Assembly (NCBI GenBank): GCA_964016885.1 | Contig: OZ024743.1 | Coordinates: 15,748,001-15,812,000 of the forward strand | Origin: Eledone cirrhosa | Lineage: Eukaryota | Length of the DNA stretch: 64,000 nt | Direction of reading: 5' to 3' | Part shown: positions 6,232-60,659 of the stretch, piece after piece | How positions within the stretch are numbered: the first letter of the stretch is position 1 | How the letters are laid out: the number at the start of each line of letters is the position of its first letter | Translations under genes and position numbers: made by a program | The notes under the pieces: model-generated | Databases searched by the model: none | What the model saw: the letters and a program-made list of their open reading frames with translations, nothing else | Told to the model about the DNA's origin: nothing

Positions 6232-6430
6232 AGTCATCATCATCATTATCATCGGATTTAGGTGCATTTTTCCATGCTTGCATGGGTTGGACAGGTCCTT
6301 CTCAGCACGGCATCGCTCCACTCATCGTATTCCTTTGTTATCTCCTCTGTGAGTCTTAGGGATTTGAGGCTAGCTCATTCTGCCTAGGTCTTTCCCAGTC
6401 TTCCTCTACTGTGGATGTTCTGGCCTTTCT
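6232..6430 (-). mobile_element. RTE LINE 3' end remnant
   Basis: Homologous to 10640-10880; (CAT)n tail; decayed RGRPGK-like coding on the minus strand. Confidence 0.7.
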
Positions 6431-8306
6431 TCATCCAGCATATGCAGCATCGGTGCCACGTAAGCAGAAAAAACATCCCAAAAGTGCAGCAGTCTGTCTT
6501 GCCAGAAAAGAACGTTGTAATGCTGAACGTGAGTACAAACTACATATATCAGATATCAATAGGAAGAGGCGAAATAAATCATCCAACCATCTCAAACAGG
6601 TGACAAAAAAGGCAGTGCTTCAATTTGAACAGCGCATAGCAACCAGCCCTGACAGTAAGGTGTTCTGGAAGTATGTTCACTCAAAGCAGAGGCCTCACTC
6701 TCCAGTTGGTCCTCTTCGCAATCCCCACACAAGCCAGGCTACTGACGACCCCAAGGAATGCGCAGAGCTCATTGCTGAATGCTATGCAGGCATTTTCACT
6801 ATTGAAGACCAGAGTGTACCGGCTCCACCACCTATGACACCGGATACTATTACAACCATGGAATTTACACCTGCAATGCTGCGATGTCACCTTAAAAATA
6901 AACGCAACCATGCCTCTTCTGGTCTTGATGTTGTTATGTACCTGCTTCTCAAACGTGGTGGGTACTTCCTTCTGCACCAGCTCTCACTCTTCTTCCAATT
7001 CTGCCGGAACAACGGTGCTACTCCAGAACAGTGGAAAACTGCCAGTGTCAATCCTCTGTTCAAAAAGGGTGACCGCACATCACCTGTGAACTATCGTCCA
7101 GCCAGTCTAACTAGCTGCATTGCTAAACTGATGGAATCCTGTGTTAGAGAAACACTTTGGAACTTCTGGATCTCTCACAGTCATATCCGGCCCTCGCAAT
7201 TCGGATTTATCCCTAACTCCAGTTGCTGTGAACAACTTATCGAGTTTCTTGAAGACATCACTGATGGTAGCTCATTGGTGGATGTTGTTTACCTTGACTT
7301 TGCTAAAGCTTTCAATTCTGTGCCACACAAAAAGCTTATGGCAAAACTCTCTGCACAGGGTGTGAAGGATGATCTTTTTAACTGGTTGAAGTCCTTCATT
7401 CTCAGTCGAAGAGAGGTAGTCACAGTTCTGCCACATCATTCCTTACCATATGAGATGTCATCTGGTGTCCCACAGGGATCTGTTCTTGGCCCCCTTTTGT
7501 TTGTGGCATATATTAATGACATATATGCCAACTTAAAGAATGCCACAGTACTGAAATATGCAGATGACATCAAGCTGTACCTTGAGATAAAAAGGACAGA
7601 TCCTGAACACTATAGATCTTGCCTGCAATCTGACCTGGACACAATGCAACAATGGATCACAGACTGGCAACTAGCTGTGGACAGGTGCATCACCATGCAT
7701 TTTGGGAGTAAAAACCCAGCGTCCACATACTCCCTCCACAACACTAATATCAAGAAGTCTTCTTGTGAACGTGACCTGGGCATTACAGTCAGCAGCGATT
7801 TGTGTTGGACGAAGCACATCTCTAAAATTGTCAAGAAGGCCGAGGGTGTCTTAGCATCACTCAGCAAGACCTTTGTCAGCCATTCTCCAGCTATCTATTT
7901 AAAGCTGTACATTGCTATGGTGCGGCCACACTTAGAATTTGCATCACCAGTCTGGAACCCCTATCTTGCTCAGAACATTCAATGCCTGGAAACTGTTCAG
8001 AGTCGTGGAACCAAGCGAATACCCTCCATCAGGCATCTACCATACTCTGAATGCCTTGCTTCCCTGGGCATGGATACATTGAAGCTCCGACGTCTGGCAA
8101 CTGACTTGGTAAACACCCACAAAATTATTAACCATCTTGCCAACAACAACCCTCAGTACCTTTTTGATTTCCATGTGTCTAACACATATGGGCATGCCAA
8201 CAAAGTCAGAAAACAGCACAGTTCCCATGACTTTCGGAAACATTTTTCACGCTCAGAGTTGCTGAAGCATGGAACAAACTACCTGCATCAGTTGTTAGCT
8301 GTCTAA
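6411..8306 (+). CDS. CR1-clade LINE ORF2 reverse transcriptase, 5' truncated (no endonuclease domain)
   Basis: Motifs PLFKKGDR, NYRP.SLTS, VDVVYLDFAKAF, SGVPQGSVLGPLLF, YADD, ERDLGI, VRPHLEFA..VWNP; the first codons run into the adjacent RTE remnant; probable frameshift near the C-terminus. Confidence 0.92.
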   Translation: MDVLAFLHPAYAASVPRKQKKHPKSAAVCLARKERCNAEREYKLHISDINRKRRNKSSNHLKQVTKKAVLQFEQRIATSPDSKVFWKYVHSKQRPHSPVGPLRNPHTSQATDDPKECAELIAECYAGIFTIEDQSVPAPPPMTPDTITTMEFTPAMLRCHLKNKRNHASSGLDVVMYLLLKRGGYFLLHQLSLFFQFCRNNGATPEQWKTASVNPLFKKGDRTSPVNYRPASLTSCIAKLMESCVRETLWNFWISHSHIRPSQFGFIPNSSCCEQLIEFLEDITDGSSLVDVVYLDFAKAFNSVPHKKLMAKLSAQGVKDDLFNWLKSFILSRREVVTVLPHHSLPYEMSSGVPQGSVLGPLLFVAYINDIYANLKNATVLKYADDIKLYLEIKRTDPEHYRSCLQSDLDTMQQWITDWQLAVDRCITMHFGSKNPASTYSLHNTNIKKSSCERDLGITVSSDLCWTKHISKIVKKAEGVLASLSKTFVSHSPAIYLKLYIAMVRPHLEFASPVWNPYLAQNIQCLETVQSRGTKRIPSIRHLPYSECLASLGMDTLKLRRLATDLVNTHKIINHLANNNPQYLFDFHVSNTYGHANKVRKQHSSHDFRKHFSRSELLKHGTNYLHQLLAV

Positions 8307-15080: not shown

Positions 15081-15665
15081 TTAACAGAGAAAGCTTTAAG
15101 CAATACTCCGACTTACTTTACCCTCACTCAACAAACATTAGGGTATACGTTAGTATAATCCCAATTATACGTTTGGGGTGCTAACTATACGTATTTTGCG
15201 GATAGCCAGTTGGATTATTTTATATGAGACATAAATAAATACATCCCTCTTTCCAAACGATCGTTTCATTATAAGTTTTCTACAAGTTGGGAAAATAATG
15301 TCCAGGTTATGTAGAAGCCTACACATAGTCTACAGGAATATATGCAGGTGGGCACTTATAAATCATCAGTGGATGCCCAACAATATCGATATAAGGCATC
15401 CACTGATGATTTATAAGTGCCCACCTGCATATATTCCTATAGACTATGTGTAGGCTTCTACATAACCTGGACATTATTTTCCCAACGTGTAGAAAACTTA
15501 TAATGAAACGATCGTTTGGAAAGAGGAATCTATTTATTTATGTCTCATTTAAAATAATACAGGTGGCTATCCGCAAAATACGTATAGTTAGCACCCCAAA
15601 CGTATAATTGGGATTATACTAAGGCATATCCTAATGTTTTTTGAGTGAGACGGAAGTCGGTCGGA
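15081..15665. mobile_element. Fold-back (inverted-repeat) HHR element between (TA)n tracts
   Basis: Arms about 15105-15377 and 15395-15665 with a 17-nt spacer; arms are slightly diverged. Confidence 0.85.
15399..15520 (+). ncRNA. Type I hammerhead ribozyme with long stem II insert (mirror copy at 15252-15373, minus strand)
   Basis: UCCA-CUGAUGA-UUUAU...AUAAU-GAAA-CGAUCG-UU-UGGA; stem I UCCA/UGGA; palindromic stem III. Confidence 0.75.
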
Positions 15666-15766
15666 TATATATATATACATGGCGGGTGTAAACGGAAGAA
15701 CAAAGCAGTCGAGGAAGTACAATGAACATATATATTCTTTTCATGCTTAATATTCTTGGAAAGGTA

Positions 15767-15798
15767 TTAACGTTTCAGACGCTAGCCCTTCATCAGAA
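15767..15798 (-). ncRNA. Minimal hammerhead ribozyme
   Basis: UU-CUGAUGA-A-GGGC-UAGC-GUCU-GAAA-CG-UU-AA; related to the 42518 copy. Confidence 0.55.
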
Positions 15799-19113: not shown

Positions 19114-19151
19114 GCCCTGATGAGTCCTTAATAGGACGAAACATTGTCGGC
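19114..19151 (+). ncRNA. Canonical minimal type I hammerhead ribozyme
   Basis: GCC-CUGAUGA-GUCCU-UAAU-AGGAC-GAAA-C-AUU-GUC-GGC, followed by AAUAAA. Confidence 0.9.
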
Positions 19152-19343
19152 TAATAAAAACTTTTGATGTATTAAAGGATTGTTTGTTTTACTCTCTTAA
19201 TTTTTTGGCTCTGTTTAACTGTTTACTGTCATTTCTATAATACGAAGAGGGTGTTTAACTCCAACACGCTCCGGTATTTTAATCCTTATATATATATATA
19301 TACATAATTATATACAAAGATATTATATGTTTATTATCATTGA

Positions 19344-22210: not shown

Positions 22211-22589
22211 ATATATATATATAAATTACTTGCTCAGATCTAAATCTGTTTCATTCGTATGACATCATCAGCAATCATACCTGATCATTCATACGAATGA
22301 AACAACTGTAGAAGTCAATTATATATATATATAATAAAGAGGTCTATACTTTAGCAATATATTGGGTACCTTTTTTTAAGTGTGTTTGCCTCTGACACCA
22401 CTCAGGAACCAGGGGTTTGACAAAATGATATAAGCACCTTGTGAATATTTCTTGTTTATTCATCATAGCATTCTTGGCTAGGTATAACTGATATTACGCA
22501 TATATGTTGACCATTTAACATCCTCACCATTTTACTCTTTAATTCACTACATCAGCATTTTGATTAATTAGAGATACTATAATTAGATG

Positions 22590-32228: not shown

Positions 32229-33410
32229 GATAAATCTACCAAAATATACGGTAGTATATACACACATATATATGTATGTAAAAAACATAGATATAAAACA
32301 CACACACACACACATATACACATACACGCGCACATACAAATGCATTCGTATACATATACAAACACGTATACACACATATGCACACTTACACACATACATA
32401 CAATATAAAAACCACCCGTATGAATAAATGAGTACAAATTATACGCAAGTAAACATACATAGAAGCGGCTGAGGGACAACAGAATATATCTGGAGTTGAA
32501 AACGCAAGTGACATGTGATATCAGGTAGTGAGAGAAAAGGGGGAAGTAAAATATGTAAAATTGTGAAGATATAAGTAAATGAATCAAAAAGCGCGGGGGT
32601 GGGGGGGGGGGCACTGGTGGATGTGAAGTAAAAATAAAGTTAAAAATAAAATTAAAAGTAAATCAGAAAGAGAAGTCTGTAAAGAAGGTAAGTTAAGGAA
32701 AGTGAAGAACAAGAGTTTATGGAGGATAAGTATCTGAAAGTGAGTTAAGTTTATATGACCTGGAAAGCAAGTGTGATTTCATATGTCGGCAACTGGTGAA
32801 AATTTCTGTTTTTACATTTAGGAAGGTTTTTGGTGATATAAGGTTCTGTAAAATCCAATATTTTTCACGTATGCAGAGTGCACATCTTCTTGTTCCTCTT
32901 GCATATTCTTTAGATTGGTTCAAAATTGACCAATCTAATTTATATCGGAAACTTTGGTCTTTCGAATCCCATATTGTGCTAGCCAGAGCTGTTGTAAATC
33001 TTTTTTCAGGATGTGGGAAAGATGCAACATGTGAGTAATAACGCGTTTTGAATTTGTCTTGTGTCATACTCACATATCGTTCGCTGGTGGCTGGTAGGTT
33101 GTTGCTGGTGGTTGTCATTTTAGCCGCATATACAATGGCTTTGGTGTTGATTTACCTTGTAATGGGCATTCACTTTTGATTCTACAGGAGCAATTTTGAT
33201 GTTCTTTGGGTATTTTCTTATTGAGGATATATGATTTAATAGGGGACCGCAGGAGAAGGTGATTTTCACACAGTTTCTATTGAAGATCTTCAATTTTGGT
33301 TTCTATTAATTTCCTGGGGAATTGGTTGACCAAATGCTTTGCTTAATTGTTTCATTTATTTTTTAAAAAAATGTTGTTGTTTCTCTTAGATTTCAAGTAT
33401 TTTTTTAAAG
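31325..33410 (-). mobile_element. Penelope-like element: GIY-YIG fragment, microsatellite-rich 3' UTR and HHR
   Basis: ORF 32717-33118 FKTRYYSH..SF...TTALASTIW...LDWSIL...RRCALCIREKYWI; HHR near the 3' end. Confidence 0.85.
31433..31498 (-). ncRNA. Hammerhead ribozyme
   Basis: CUUGU-CUGACGA-A-CGGAUGAGGAC...GUCUUAUUCG-G-GAAA-CCUCUGG-UA-AUGAG. Confidence 0.7.
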
Positions 33411-34138: not shown

Positions 34139-34207
<69 letters not shown>

Positions 34208-34269
34208 ATACTTGGGGAGGGTCATATTTGTGTAATATTGCCAGAATTAATAAACTAATTCATCGCCGC

Positions 34270-37766: not shown

Positions 37767-37817
37767 AGATTCTACAGGACTAGAACTGTTTCATTCTTTA
37801 GAAATCATCAGGAATCT
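37767..37817 (-). ncRNA. Hammerhead ribozyme
   Basis: AGAUUC-CUGAUGA-UUUC-UAAA-GAAU-GAAA-CAG-UUCUAGUC-CUG-UA-GAAUCU; 6-bp stem I. Confidence 0.8.
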
Positions 37818-49494: not shown

Positions 49495-50130
49495 CTAAGG
49501 CGGGTAAAATTCCCGAGATCCATGGACGAGATCTCTCCAGCGGTCTCTGTCCCTCATTATCGCTGCCATATCCTGCATCTCCAACAGACCAGTGTCTGTC
49601 CTTAGGGCATCAACATATCTGGTAGAGAATGTTGAGAAGCCAGAGGGGATCACTAATGTAGGCGGGAAGCCGCTGGAATTGGTTGAGGACTTCCTGTATT
49701 TGGGAGCAAAGATTGGGAATACGGAAGATGATGTGGTTGAGAGGAAGAGCAAGGCCTGGGCGGCGTGTCACAGCTTGAGATCGGTGTGGAAGTCGGACCT
49801 TTGTAGAGACCTGAAAATCCGCCTCTTCATTGTTGTAGTGGAGTCCGTGCTGCTGTATGGGTCTGCGACTTGGACACTGACCAAGAGACTCACTCAGATG
49901 GTGGATGGGTGCTACACGAGAATGCTGAGGATGGCTCTGAACATTAATCAGTATACACTGAGGATGAAAAATTCAGAGCTGTATGGGAGCATCCCAAAAG
50001 TCAGCTCAAAAGTGACACAGAGGAGACTGAGGTTGGCTGGACATGCTCACCGACATCCAGAGTTGACATTGCACTCAGTGCTCCTTTGGGAGCCCCTAAA
50101 TGGACACACTAGAAGAGGAAGACCAAGGTT

Positions 50131-50136
<6 letters not shown>
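49495..50136. mobile_element. RTE LINE 3' fragment with internal inversion
   Basis: Plus strand: VEDFLYLGA...VESVLLYGS..W...GRPRLTY; minus strand 49495-49618 continues [11 protein letters not shown]...DRDRWR. Confidence 0.9.
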
Positions 50137-50206
<70 letters not shown>

Positions 50207-54681: not shown

Positions 54682-54787
54682 AAATAAAAGATTAAAGTTT
54701 AAGCAAAGAATCGCTGCTTTCACCCTTAACGGGATCTCGTTAAGGGTGAAAGCAGCGATTCTTTGCTTAAACTTTAATCTTTTATTT
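54682..54787. repeat. Perfect hairpin with 50-bp arms, derived from the 56.7-kb HHR family
   Basis: Arms 54682-54731 and 54738-54787. Confidence 0.9.
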
Positions 54788-54898
54788 ACACAAATATTGG
54801 CTCTACGGTTCTCATATATCTGTTATATATTTATCCTTATCGAGCCTTCTTTGGATTTTAGTCTTCAAATTTATTATTATTACTATATATATATATAT

Positions 54899-56570
54899 TG
54901 TTATGTTTTGGGAGGGTCATGTTGCCAATAAGAAACACACGCAAGAAGTTACTTTCACTTCAATTTATTATAAATTAAATTTATAAATTTCCGGTTGGTT
55001 GGTTGGTTCCACAACCAGACGATTGTTCATATATTGACAAAGTTCTTTCGTCACACATTATGTGACCTCTTCAGTGACTGGGGATTATTTTCTTTGTATT
55101 TGTGCCTCTCCTTTGTTCTGTCCTACACCATCTTGTTTTTGTGTGTGATGTGTGCTTAGTTTGCGCATGTGTTACATCCGGGTGTCTGTGTGTGTTTATA
55201 TTTGTTTATTTACATGTTACTGGTTGGTTGGTTGTTTTATGCGTGTGTGTGTTTTCATTTTGTCCTTAATTGTAAGTTGTTATGTTGCTGTTCCCTTCAT
55301 GTTTTCTATTTAATTTTGGTTGGAGTTCATTTATGTTTATTGTCTCTGTGATTTGTCTAAACATTACGTCTTTTCTGTGTGTAGATTCTATTTTTATTTC
55401 TATGTTCTCTAATTTACCCTTATGTTCTATTTTAGCATGTTGGTGGAGTACAGACGATTCTTTACTATCTTGAAGCTTTCGCCAGTGTTCAGTTATCCGT
55501 TCCCCTATACTACGAGCTGTCTCACATATGTACACTATATTCTTATCTCTACATTGTCCTTCAGTACATCTTATGCTATATACTACATTTCCAGTTTTAC
55601 AGTTAATATGGGGGCTTAGTTTACAGATTATATATTTCTTATCTATACAGGGAGGGCTTTGAAAAGGTTATGTATTGCTAATAAGTGTTTTTATGGAGGT
55701 AAATGGTCTTTCTACTATCTTAATATTGAGTTTATGTTTATCTAGGGCCCTTCTAAATTTGTAAGCTAATTCACCTCTAGGGGTTGTATCGATGAACATT
55801 ACACTCTGGTATTTATTTCTATCATACCACGAGTTTATTCTATTAAGCTTATTCCTAGTTCGTTCTATTCTATTCCAAAATTTGCTCCTATACAAGAGGC
55901 AGGTCCCATTTGTATCATTATTTACCATTTTTCCCCATTTGGTTCTGGCTCCTCTATATACTCTGATTTTATCTCTCTGATTGTAACCAAAGAACTGCAT
56001 ACGGTGATGAAGTGTTGTATGTGTCTCTCTAGTTCTTTGTGGTTGCACATGCGGGACACGTTTCTCATCACCCGTACCAAATCCGCAATCAGTATGTTGA
56101 TTTTGGTATGGACCGAAACAGCTGAGTTTCGGTGGATCAGATATTTGGAAGTCATAGGTTTGGCATAATGGGAATGGAGGATTTGTTTTTTGTTATTAAT
56201 GGTATCTAACCAGAGCTCTGTGTCTAGTACAGGTAATCGATGGTTGGGGTGTTTGCTTGGGTAGTCTATAGTAATTCTAATACTCTGGTGGATGGAGTTA
56301 GCTATTTGTTGGATGCTTTTCATGGTGTTTTTCTCTAATTCCTGACTGTTCTCTAGTGGGGGTGTTTTTACTACGATGTTTATATCATCAACGTAGCGGG
56401 AGTACATTATCAGGGTTAAGAGGTTGCTGTCTTCTAATTGTTCTTTAAGTTTATTCTCGCACCATACCATGAATAGGTTAGCTATGTCACCTGCAATGCT
56501 AACACCAATGTCTGCTCCCTCCTCTTGGGCATATGTTTTTCCATTAAATTTGAACATAAAACAACATAAA
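54899..56570 (-). mobile_element. Penelope-like element (RT plus GIY-YIG, frameshifted), with HHR at 55036-55078
   Basis: YAQEEGADIGVSIAGDIANLFM, YSRYVDD, LPVLDTELW, NVVYSIRC...YICETARSIGERITEH, PKLNRK; CUGAAGA-G-GUCACA-UAAUG-UGUGAC-GAAA. Confidence 0.9.
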
Positions 56571-56636
56571 GCATAACAATATCGGTTTAAACACACGTTT
56601 TCAGATGAAGAATCTTGCTAAACAAATTCAGAAACG

Positions 56637-56672
<36 letters not shown>

Positions 56673-57473: not shown

Positions 57474-57542
<69 letters not shown>

Positions 57543-57565
57543 ATTTATATTTATATATGTATATA

Positions 57566-57602
<37 letters not shown>

Positions 57603-57721
57603 TTATATATATATACATATATATATACATATATATATATTTATATATATATATATTTATATATATATATATATATATATATTTATTTATATATATATAC
57701 ATATATATATACATATATATA

Positions 57722-57828
<107 letters not shown>

Positions 57829-57829
57829 G

Positions 57830-59333
57830 TTTAAACAATTAAGTTAAAGTGTACATCTACATATGTATACGGAAGTATTAGTATGCATATAAATACACAT
57901 ATGTATACATATGTACATGTTCCGAGCTTTTCACTAGACACTTTGCAGTGAGTGTCTAGCTAGTCTGTATGTAAACACACAGACGAACCGGGTTTTAAAG
58001 TCATACGGGTTTTCAAGGAAACACACTTCCTCTATTCCCCAGAGAGCCAGACAGGAATATTGGACTAGTTTCGATGTTATTACATCTCATCAGCAATATA
58101 TACCTATCTTCTGGCTTCTCCGGAGAATTGTCAAAGCACATATCGTTATATGCTTTTTCTATGAAAATCAGTAGTGGGCAGACTAATTTGCATAGAACGT
58201 GAGTCATTGTACGCGCCGGTTCAGCGGAAACGATAAAAACAAATAACGAAACGAAATTAAATTTCGTTTCGCTTCTAACTCACTTTTGTATGACTGACGC
58301 TTAAACAATTAAGTTAAAGTGTACATCTACATATGTATACGGAAGTATTAGTATGCATATAAATACACATATGTATACATATGTACATGTACCGAGCTTT
58401 TCACTAGACACTTTGCAGTGAGTGTCTAGCTAGTCTGTATGTAAACACACAGACGAACCGGGTTTTATAGAAAAAGAATATAACGATATGTGCTTTTACA
58501 ATTCTCCGGAGAAGCCAGAAGATAGGTATATATTGCTGATGAGATGTAATAACATCGAAACTAGTCCAATATTCCTGTCTGGCTCTCTGGAGAATAGAGG
58601 AAGTGTGTTTCCTTGAAAACCCGTATGACTTTAAAACCCGGTTCGTCTGTGTGTTTACATACAGACTAGCTAGACACTCACTGCAAAGTGTCTAGTGAAA
58701 AGCTCGGTACATGTACATATGTATAAATATGTGTATTTATATGCATACTAATACTTCCGTATACATATGTAGATGTACACTTTAACTTAATTGTTTAAGC
58801 GTCAGTCATACAAAAGTGAGTTAGAAGCGAAACGAAATTTAATTTCGTTTCGTTATTTGTTTTTATCGTTTCCGCTGAACCGGCGCGTACAATGACTCAC
58901 GTTCTATGCAAATTAGTCTGCCCACTACTGATTTTCATAGAAAAAGCATATAACGATATGTGCTTTGACAATTCTCCGGAGAAGCCAGAAGATAGGTATA
59001 TATTGCTGATGAGATGTAATAACATCGAAACTAGTCCAATATTCCTGTCTGGCTCTCTGGAGAATAGAGGAAGTGTGTTTCCTTGAAAACCCGTATGACT
59101 TTAAAACCCGGTTCGTCTGTGTGTTTACATACAGACTAGCTAGACACTCACTGCAAAGTGTCTAGTGAAAAGCTCGGTACATGTACATATGTATAAATAT
59201 GTGTATTTATATGCATACTAATACTTCCGTATACATATGTAGATGTACACTTTAACTTAATTGTTTAAGCGTCAGTCATACAAAAGTGAGTTAGAAGCGA
59301 AACGAAATTTAATTTCGTTTCGTTATTTGTTTT
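57830..59333. mobile_element. Non-coding 470-nt HHR monomer, arranged in tandem and inverted
   Basis: Period 470 (57831/58301 and 58481/58951); orientation flips at about 58468. Confidence 0.92.
58530..58572 (+). ncRNA. Canonical minimal hammerhead (copies at 59000-59042 plus and 58057-58099 minus)
   Basis: AUAUUG-CUGAUGA-GAUGU-AAUA-ACAUC-GAAA-CUAG-UC-CAAUAU. Confidence 0.92.
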
Positions 59334-59635
59334 ATATATGTTTATATATATATATACATATATATATATTTACATATATATATATACATATATATATATT
59401 TACATATATATATATACATATATATATATGCATATATATATATATTTATATATATATATTTATATATATATATACATATATATACATATATATACATATA
59501 TATATATGTACATATATATATACACATATATATATATACATATATATATACATATATATATATACATATATATATACATATATATATATATACATATATA
59601 TATATACATATATATATATATACATATATATATAC

Positions 59636-59713
<78 letters not shown>

Positions 59714-59781
59714 ATATTTATATTTATATATATATATTAATTCTGGCAATATTACACAAATATGACCCTCCCCAAGTATAG

Positions 59782-59877
<96 letters not shown>

Positions 59878-59880
59878 GTA

Positions 59881-60607
59881 TGTATATATAATGTATTTTG
59901 CAATACACTTTATGCTAAATTAAAAGCATTTTGAAGACCGTAAGCTATTGTTTTTTAGAGTAGTGACAAATTCACTTACTTTGATCTCAGCAAACAGGAG
60001 AGATAAGCCGACAAGGCCTTGTTTCGCTTTTGTTGAAGCTTATCAAGGCTAACTACTCCCACCTGTCTACCGAGATCACTGATGTTATATTCTTATAGAA
60101 TTCTAGTAAATAATCAGGAGCTGATTATGCAGAGCGGTTGTTGGTCAGGCAGAAATTAAAAATTAGAATTGGAGCTCTGAGATAGCAATATATATATGGA
60201 TGTATATATAATGTATTTTGCAATACACTTTATGCTTAATTAAAAGCATTTTGAAGACCGTAAGCTATTGTTTTTTAGAGTAGTGACAAATTCACTTACT
60301 TTTTCTGCCTGACCAACAACCGCTCTGCATAATCAGCTCCTGATTATTTACTAGAATTCTATAAGAATATAACATCAGTGATCTCGGTAGACAGGTGGGA
60401 GTAGTTAGCCTTGATAAGCTTCAACAAAGCGAAACAAGGCCTTGTCGGCTTATCTCTCATGTTTGCTGAGATCAAAGTAAGTGAATTTGTCACTACTCTA
60501 AAAAACAATAGCTTACGGTCTTCAAAATGCTTTTAATTAAGCATAAAGTGTATTGCAAAATACATTATATATACATCCATATATATATTGCTATCTCAGA
60601 GCTTCAA

Positions 60608-60612
<5 letters not shown>
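59881..60612. mobile_element. Non-coding 320-nt HHR monomer, arranged in tandem and inverted
   Basis: Period 320 (59881/60201); orientation flips at about 60302. Confidence 0.9.
60407..60450 (+). ncRNA. Hammerhead ribozyme, U3-A8 core (mirror copy at 60006-60050, minus strand)
   Basis: AGCC-UUGAUAA-GCUU-CAACA-AAGC-GAAA-CAAGGCCUUG-UC-GGCU. Confidence 0.85.

Positions 60613-60659
<47 letters not shown>

Follow-up and report, generated by a model that had tools for sequence, protein, structure and literature searches.

A hammerhead retrozyme family in Eledone cirrhosa with the insertion signature of Penelope-like elements

We analysed 64,000 nucleotides of the Eledone cirrhosa genome (GCA_964016885.1, contig OZ024743.1, positions 15,748,001 to 15,812,000, forward strand; hereafter the window), in which an initial annotation had noticed partial tandem copies of a 470-nt unit on both strands at about 57830-59333, one hammerhead ribozyme per unit. 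This element is a member of a dispersed, high-copy and young family of retrozymes without long terminal repeats (non-LTR retrozymes), very probably copied into the genome by the enzyme of a Neptune-type Penelope-like element (PLE). Paired fixed 3' ends, targets in (TA)n tracts, and chimeras of retrozyme and PLE sequence bear out the suggestion that the fold-back shape reflects PLE machinery, and together they constitute new, fairly direct genomic evidence for PLE mobilisation of retrozymes and for how PLEs insert. The papers cited here state as open both the mobilising enzyme of animal retrozymes and the origin of tandem, inverted and tailed PLE insertions; in this one genome a young intact PLE occurs together with no fewer than two unrelated hammerhead repeats whose insertion grammar is exactly the same, and with chimeras between them.

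The window insertion and its family

Positions within the unit are given as phases, counted within 470 nt from phase 1 at 58567 of the reference unit, 58567-59036. The window insertion consists of two 5'-truncated arms joined head-to-head at 58463-58470, where they overlap imperfectly by 8 nt. The minus arm runs from 58470 to 57831 (640 nt; phases 63-470, then 1-232; 1.36 units) and the plus arm from 58463 to 59333 (871 nt; phases 367-470, 1-470 and 1-297; 1.85 units), close to the 1.4 and 1.8 units first estimated. Each arm differs from the reference unit at 2-4 positions, so that the copies are indeed nearly identical, and the whole lies, as had been noted, between (TA)n tracts, of which the left (57474-57830) is the likely insertion target and the right occupies 59334-59738. 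The minus arm ends at fixed site 1 (57831) and the plus arm at fixed site 2 (59333), both described below; the inverted arms stop at 59268, and the plus arm overshoots by a 65-nt tail at 59269-59333 (phases 233-297). This insertion is typical of the family.

The unit is 37% GC and its longest stop-free frame is 88 amino acids, in keeping with a non-coding element. Folded as a circle it has a minimum free energy of -156.7 kcal/mol with 65% of positions paired (z -13 against 40 shuffles). Type I hammerheads lie on the plus strand at 58518-58588 and 58988-59058, with predicted cuts after 58566 and 59036, and on the minus strand at 58041-58111, with the predicted cut between 58063 and 58062. The two plus-strand GUC sites are spaced exactly 470 nt apart, as the initial annotation had it, and bound one full monomer (58567-59036, plus strand). 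Against Rfam HH9 all three score 34 bits (E 3.6e-6), less than the gathering score of 52, at which Rfam returns no match within the window; the miRNA matches seen at the Rfam E-value threshold are AT-repeat noise and were set aside. The core is canonical, and helix III has just one pair, with a palindromic CUAG as its cap. Describing the ribozyme as perfect was therefore right as to its core and its presence once per unit, and overstated as to the whole, because the CUAG-capped form of helix III is reported to cleave well only as a dimer: the HHR_Amex1-type hammerhead of amphibian retrozymes, which likewise has one pair in helix III and a palindromic tetraloop, is weak alone and efficient as a dimer (PMC7229834).

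Across the 3.0 Gb searched, there are 1,463 exact copies of a 31-nt hammerhead core (control, 0), and the unit itself gave 209 matches from the 39 candidates scored out of 924. Several subfamilies with compensatory stem changes are present, diverging by up to 15%; a second subfamily group is 84-91% identical to the unit. Array lengths range from less than 1 to more than 30 units, the long arrays reaching 14.7 and more than 30. An open reading frame (ORF) combining reverse transcriptase (RT) and GIY-YIG endonuclease was found neither in the unit nor between units, and no ORF of any kind intervenes between units in the roughly 97 loci inspected, so the copies are not, as a rule, attached to a PLE ORF. 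With thousands of dispersed non-coding hammerhead units and no LTR/PBS/PPT organisation, the family has every testable feature of a non-LTR retrozyme, RNA cleavage and circularity being predicted.

Long arrays (L008/L009, L031 and L065-L066) show higher-order patterns, with alternating 470- and 432-nt units or repeated variant blocks, pointing to later expansion at the DNA level.

Paired fixed 3' ends

The initial annotation described the runs as starting and stopping at arbitrary points in the unit. This holds for the 5' ends, whose phases are uniform (Kolmogorov-Smirnov p=0.54, n=52, four of them adjusted by eye). It does not hold for the 3' ends, which the genome-wide search and phase mapping that it had proposed place, throughout a dispersed family, at phase 226-232 (site 1) or at about phase 300 (site 2), with (TA)n following in nearly every case. 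The site-2 end followed by (AT)n has 2,252 exact matches genome-wide. A subfamily-specific site-1 pattern has 193 forward matches, and 439 in reverse, a count that includes places repeatedly; a control phase also ending in AT was found at one place, both strands combined. A hidden autonomous partner as the source of the site-2 excess was rejected, since 40 of 40 loci anchored on that end are retrozyme copies, mostly of the second subfamily.

Within fold-backs the two sites are used as a pair, a rule that we followed through three sets of loci. The first 100 core matches on chromosome sequence C1, taken in order, reduce to 34 independent loci, among which are 21 site-1/site-2 fold-backs (L044, L058 and L060 read by eye) and a single exception, the four-part L049, so that the rule is kept in 21 of 22 resolved fold-backs; the others are one ambiguous stub, two loci with a foreign or broken second arm, eight single arms and one long array of which one end was reached. 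The second set comprises 40 loci that were chosen by a site-2 end and do not contain the exact core: in 28 of them (28 of 29 resolved) the inverted arm or stub ends at site 1, in one it ends at phase 213, seven are single and four extend beyond the fetched DNA. Among the 23 best-matching places that form the third set, 15 of 16 resolved fold-backs conform, one locus is unresolved and six are single or chimeric. Pooled, 64 of 67 resolved fold-backs pair site 1 with site 2, and site-2/site-2 fold-backs are absent among the 67.

Chimeras and the insertion grammar of Penelope-like elements

Two loci join retrozyme and PLE sequence cleanly. At L116, a 318-nt PLE arm ending at the +26 site of the PLE joins a retrozyme arm ending at phase 300, with no TA at the joint; this PLE arm comes from a related young subfamily, and the 40 near-full-length matches listed for it, one of them being the arm itself, show 97-100% identity. 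The same join was predicted for L022 and found in the extended locus L114, again with no TA at the joint. There a retrozyme arm ending at 300 is combined with a PLE arm ending at +26, and 175 nt of the PLE N-terminal ORF are fused in sense to the retrozyme 5' end. Locus L043, considered as a further chimera, is more readily explained as a fold-back that copied a flanking PLE stub locally.

The intact PLE has a 1,210-amino-acid ORF with a YVDD RT, a CxxxxCxxC linker and, at the C terminus, a GIY-YIG-like region. Because Pfam returned only a weak RVT_1 match for this ORF, its endonuclease label rests on motifs; the clade name, Neptune-type, follows PMC8557442. For the active PLE, 95 of 95 scored matches are 100% identical, among the matches listed. 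Its 59 mapped ends (some loci were fetched twice) fall into two classes, at ORF +21/+26 (30 ends) and at +69 to +85 (29 ends), and 14 of 14 fold-backs carry one end of each class. It also forms a tandem with a period of 4,117 bp around a 3,651-nt frame, covering at least 2.4 units at 99.98% identity.

An unrelated retrozyme-like unit of 320 nt, with a U3:A8 variant core and a weak HH9 match (E 0.019), lies nearby at 59868-60614 of the window and has no sequence in common with the 470-nt unit. It occurs elsewhere in tandem arrays, and its best genomic copies are 95-99% identical. In 5 of 5 fold-backs of this repeat, too, one arm has its 3' end at phase 142 and the other at 168-175.

The very young family of the active PLE, represented at locus L097 (G000:C1:307339500-307349499), has open frames of 1,217 codons with an Asn-rich low-complexity insert, and returned 44,092 first-look candidates genome-wide. 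Within the window, 54890-56640 (main body on the minus strand) is a broken, 5'-truncated Neptune-type PLE, of the family from which the PLE arms of the chimeras come; it has a YVDD RT, a C-terminal endonuclease region and its own hammerhead near 55040-55075, its inverted stub lies at about 56560-56640, and its tail is 58 nt long. A 57-nt stub of the 3' end of the active PLE sits at 59736-59792, in the TA tract between the two retrozymes, and a near-identical one at 34195-34251 on the minus strand.

Clonality of insertions and the template

Across 58 loci, the divergence of units is 1.7% inside an arm, 1.9% between the arms of an insertion and 4.4% between loci. The pattern is sharper at 63 diagnostic sites typed in 93 loci (excluding duplicates, the second half of the long array, L028, L049 and L060), where mismatches amount to 105/26,723 (0.4%) within arms and 40/7,884 (0.5%) between arms, against 39% between loci. 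There are 50 haplotypes among 81 well-covered loci, and 18 locus-private variants are fixed in all covering copies. The monomer is thus the unit of inheritance, and both arms usually carry one haplotype; that arms usually derive from different retrozyme RNAs was rejected, the arms of 54 of 55 fold-backs lying within 5% of each other at the diagnostic sites.

Because the cut site lies within most arms, the usual template is not a cleaved linear monomer. The initial annotation had argued for a circular RNA from permuted ends, an argument that fails because the 3' ends are fixed rather than arbitrary. A circle is nevertheless plausible on other grounds: arms cross the cleavage site, 5' ends do not pile up there (2 of 52, against 2.3 expected), and each insertion carries one haplotype. 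Clonality is what a circle predicts, and it fits RT jumping on a short linear multimer likewise. On balance we lean slightly towards circular RNA as the template.

Proposed mechanism and alternatives

In the mechanism that we propose, the PLE endonuclease would cut both strands of a (TA)n tract, and each cut strand would prime reverse transcription on retrozyme RNA, with phase 226-232 as the starting point for one strand and phase 300 for its opposite. Both cDNAs would stop at random and join head-to-head, leaving a fold-back with a tail of 65-74 nt on one side. With a little better than an even chance, tandem transcripts would first be cleaved by paired hammerheads to yield 470-nt monomers, these would close into circles, and RT would run round the circle, giving arms longer than one unit. 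More tentatively, and with somewhat less than even confidence, we envisage a viroid-like circular RNA that, without sequence kinship to its helper, would parasitise the Neptune PLE by its fold alone: the PLE protein would prime a single RNA twice, at the two fixed sites and from either cut strand of the target, and rolling reverse transcription from both primers would build the whole insertion, with its tandem, fold-back and tail. The two-primer rule, if true, would explain the tandem, inverted and tailed structures of PLEs generally. Since the protein is named, the template is 470 nt long, the target is (TA)n and two start sites are predicted, the circular and linear models and the two-primer model can be tested directly in the published in vitro system of the anole PLE.

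Several observations weigh against this interpretation. Three fold-backs break the pairing rule (L017 and L049 are site-1/site-1, and one end of L163 is at phase 213), and retrozyme tails measure 69-74 nt versus 43-59 nt for PLE tails. Compared with two Neptune-type PLE spacers the unit gives a best E of 0.2, which is not significant, and the partner is therefore named from architecture and from two clean chimeras among about 97 loci. Nested insertion followed by deletion could mimic any single chimera, and further retrozyme-PLE joins fall into no settled class (L115; L113, its far end overwritten; L038, where the PLE looks decayed). Of the 49 aligned units, 18 carry GUU as their cut-site triplet. 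Double changes, found in 7 of 140 predicted pairs (99.4% of cells paired), hammerhead stem II being one of the places, with AU 31 times and UA 17 times among 48 distinct rows, are to be read as counts and not as probabilities, because the rows are related and the structure was derived from the same alignment. Within the window, A160 is limited to both copies in the plus arm, and G401 stands in one plus and one minus copy and is missing from the other plus copy; a single circle requires later conversion to account for this pattern, and linear jumping accounts for it no more cleanly.

The most serious alternative concerns the circle step alone and keeps PLE-driven insertion: a linear read-through transcript would be the template, RT would jump between its repeats, and the hammerhead would be idle. 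We regard this as a real possibility, if one a little short of even. Hammerhead mutants of an anole PLE insert normally in vitro, with uncleaved RNA as the main substrate (PMC11167929), the autonomous PLE described above is tandem as well, the long arrays are possible sources of linear template, and RT jumping, too, would yield clonal insertions. Against an idle ribozyme stands its conservation. The CUGAUGA core is invariant in 49 of 49 aligned units and GAAA is altered in one, and since this core is nearly invariant and stem II pairing is kept while subfamilies diverge, something selects for the ribozyme fold; the pairing-preserving changes, informally counted, likewise suggest selection on the fold. 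Long arrays, moreover, contain mixed units (about 2% in L065/L066), in contrast to the dispersed insertions, which are clonal at the diagnostic sites.

It is improbable that the unit is instead a pseudo-LTR (pLTR) of a further, undiscovered autonomous PLE, its copies being truncated or ORF-deleted, as proposed for Xenopus retrozymes. There, 24 of 57 families are homologous at their termini to known transposable elements, nearly all PLEs (10.64898/2026.07.22.740005); the active PLE has a spacer of about unit length by its period and frame, and our spacer comparison covered two of several PLE families in the genome. However, the pLTR homology that this predicts was not found in those two; the units abut seamlessly head-to-tail, the site-2-anchored loci never continue into an ORF, and no ORF start is kept near the priming sites, whereas both PLEs have ends inside the ORF start. 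The unit also gives only AT-repeat matches or E >0.2 against the neighbouring PLE, the spacer of the active PLE and four other hammerhead-bearing stretches of the window. The word GAAACGAAAT is common to the unit's hairpin and the site-2 end of one PLE, which may be chance.

An assembly or library artefact, or a satellite that DNA recombination has rearranged, is a very improbable source of the fold-back. Assembly is difficult for palindromes beside long (TA)n tracts, and no contig from four public runs spans the junction; three of the runs, from one sample, gave many short family-derived pieces in its region and the fourth gave none. But the two arms have different starting phases (63 and 367) and each has substitutions of its own, at least 64 loci follow the same rule with different junction phases, and two unrelated element families do likewise.

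Relation to known systems

Cervera and de la Pena (2020, PMC7229834) demonstrated RNA circles for metazoan non-LTR retrozymes, in a study that suggests PLE mobilisation and leaves the mobilising RT open between LINEs (long interspersed nuclear elements) and PLEs. Like those retrozymes, the present family shows tandem non-coding units (less than 50% GC, a single type I hammerhead in each), a highly self-paired predicted circle, thousands of copies, and PLEs in the same genome. The unit, at 470 nt, is longer than the roughly 170-400 nt of that study, and its circle is only predicted here. A preprint (10.64898/2026.07.22.740005) concludes that PLE machinery mobilises animal retrozymes from co-occurrence and pLTR homology, mostly in vertebrates; we share the conclusion on different evidence, an insertion signature and chimeras, having found no such homology. 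The words 'inverted', 'tail' and 'microsatellite' do not occur in the main text of PMC7229834, nor 'tail' and 'template' in the text of the preprint. Evidence from tails, fold-backs or chimeras did not surface in word searches of either main text, though the supplements may contain such cases, and paired fixed ends in retrozymes are unreported in the literature searched, which excludes most subscription papers.

PLEs are known for 5' truncation, partial tandems, an inverted 5' copy, a tail of 30-40 bp at one end and (TA)n targets (PMC8557442). In vitro, the protein of the anole PLE Poseidon cuts and extends both strands, and its RT starts at two internal sites, which bound the tail (PMC11167929). 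The retrozyme resembles such endonuclease-bearing PLEs (Neptune/Naiad architecture, PMC8557442; Poseidon, PMC11167929) in its 5' truncation, partial tandems, inverted 5'-truncated arm and (TA)n targets, in having a tail at one end only, and in its two internal RT start sites, here inferred. Unlike them it has no ORF, its tail is 69-74 nt rather than 30-40, and its hammerhead has a long bulged helix I in place of the minimal PLE form. It also departs from non-autonomous elements of Chlamys such as MRC1, which share 3' sequence with their partners, as the 470-nt unit detectably does not.

Other elements in the window

Minimal hammerhead-like cores, probably of other PLE families, lie at 19117-19152 on the plus strand and at 15760-15796, 22236-22271 and 37776-37811 on the minus strand. 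A minus-strand fragment of another abundant element, at 32720-33151, has matches in L036, L045, L056, L057, L059 and L064; loci related to it carry YRDD RT motifs, and we presume, as a provisional label, that it may be a Hydra-like PLE. LINE-type RT fragments occur on the plus strand at 6360-8303 (RVT_1, E 4.6e-30) and 49508-50206. Short near-perfect palindromes at 15360-15475 and 54686-54760 resemble tiny fold-back insertions of other repeats.
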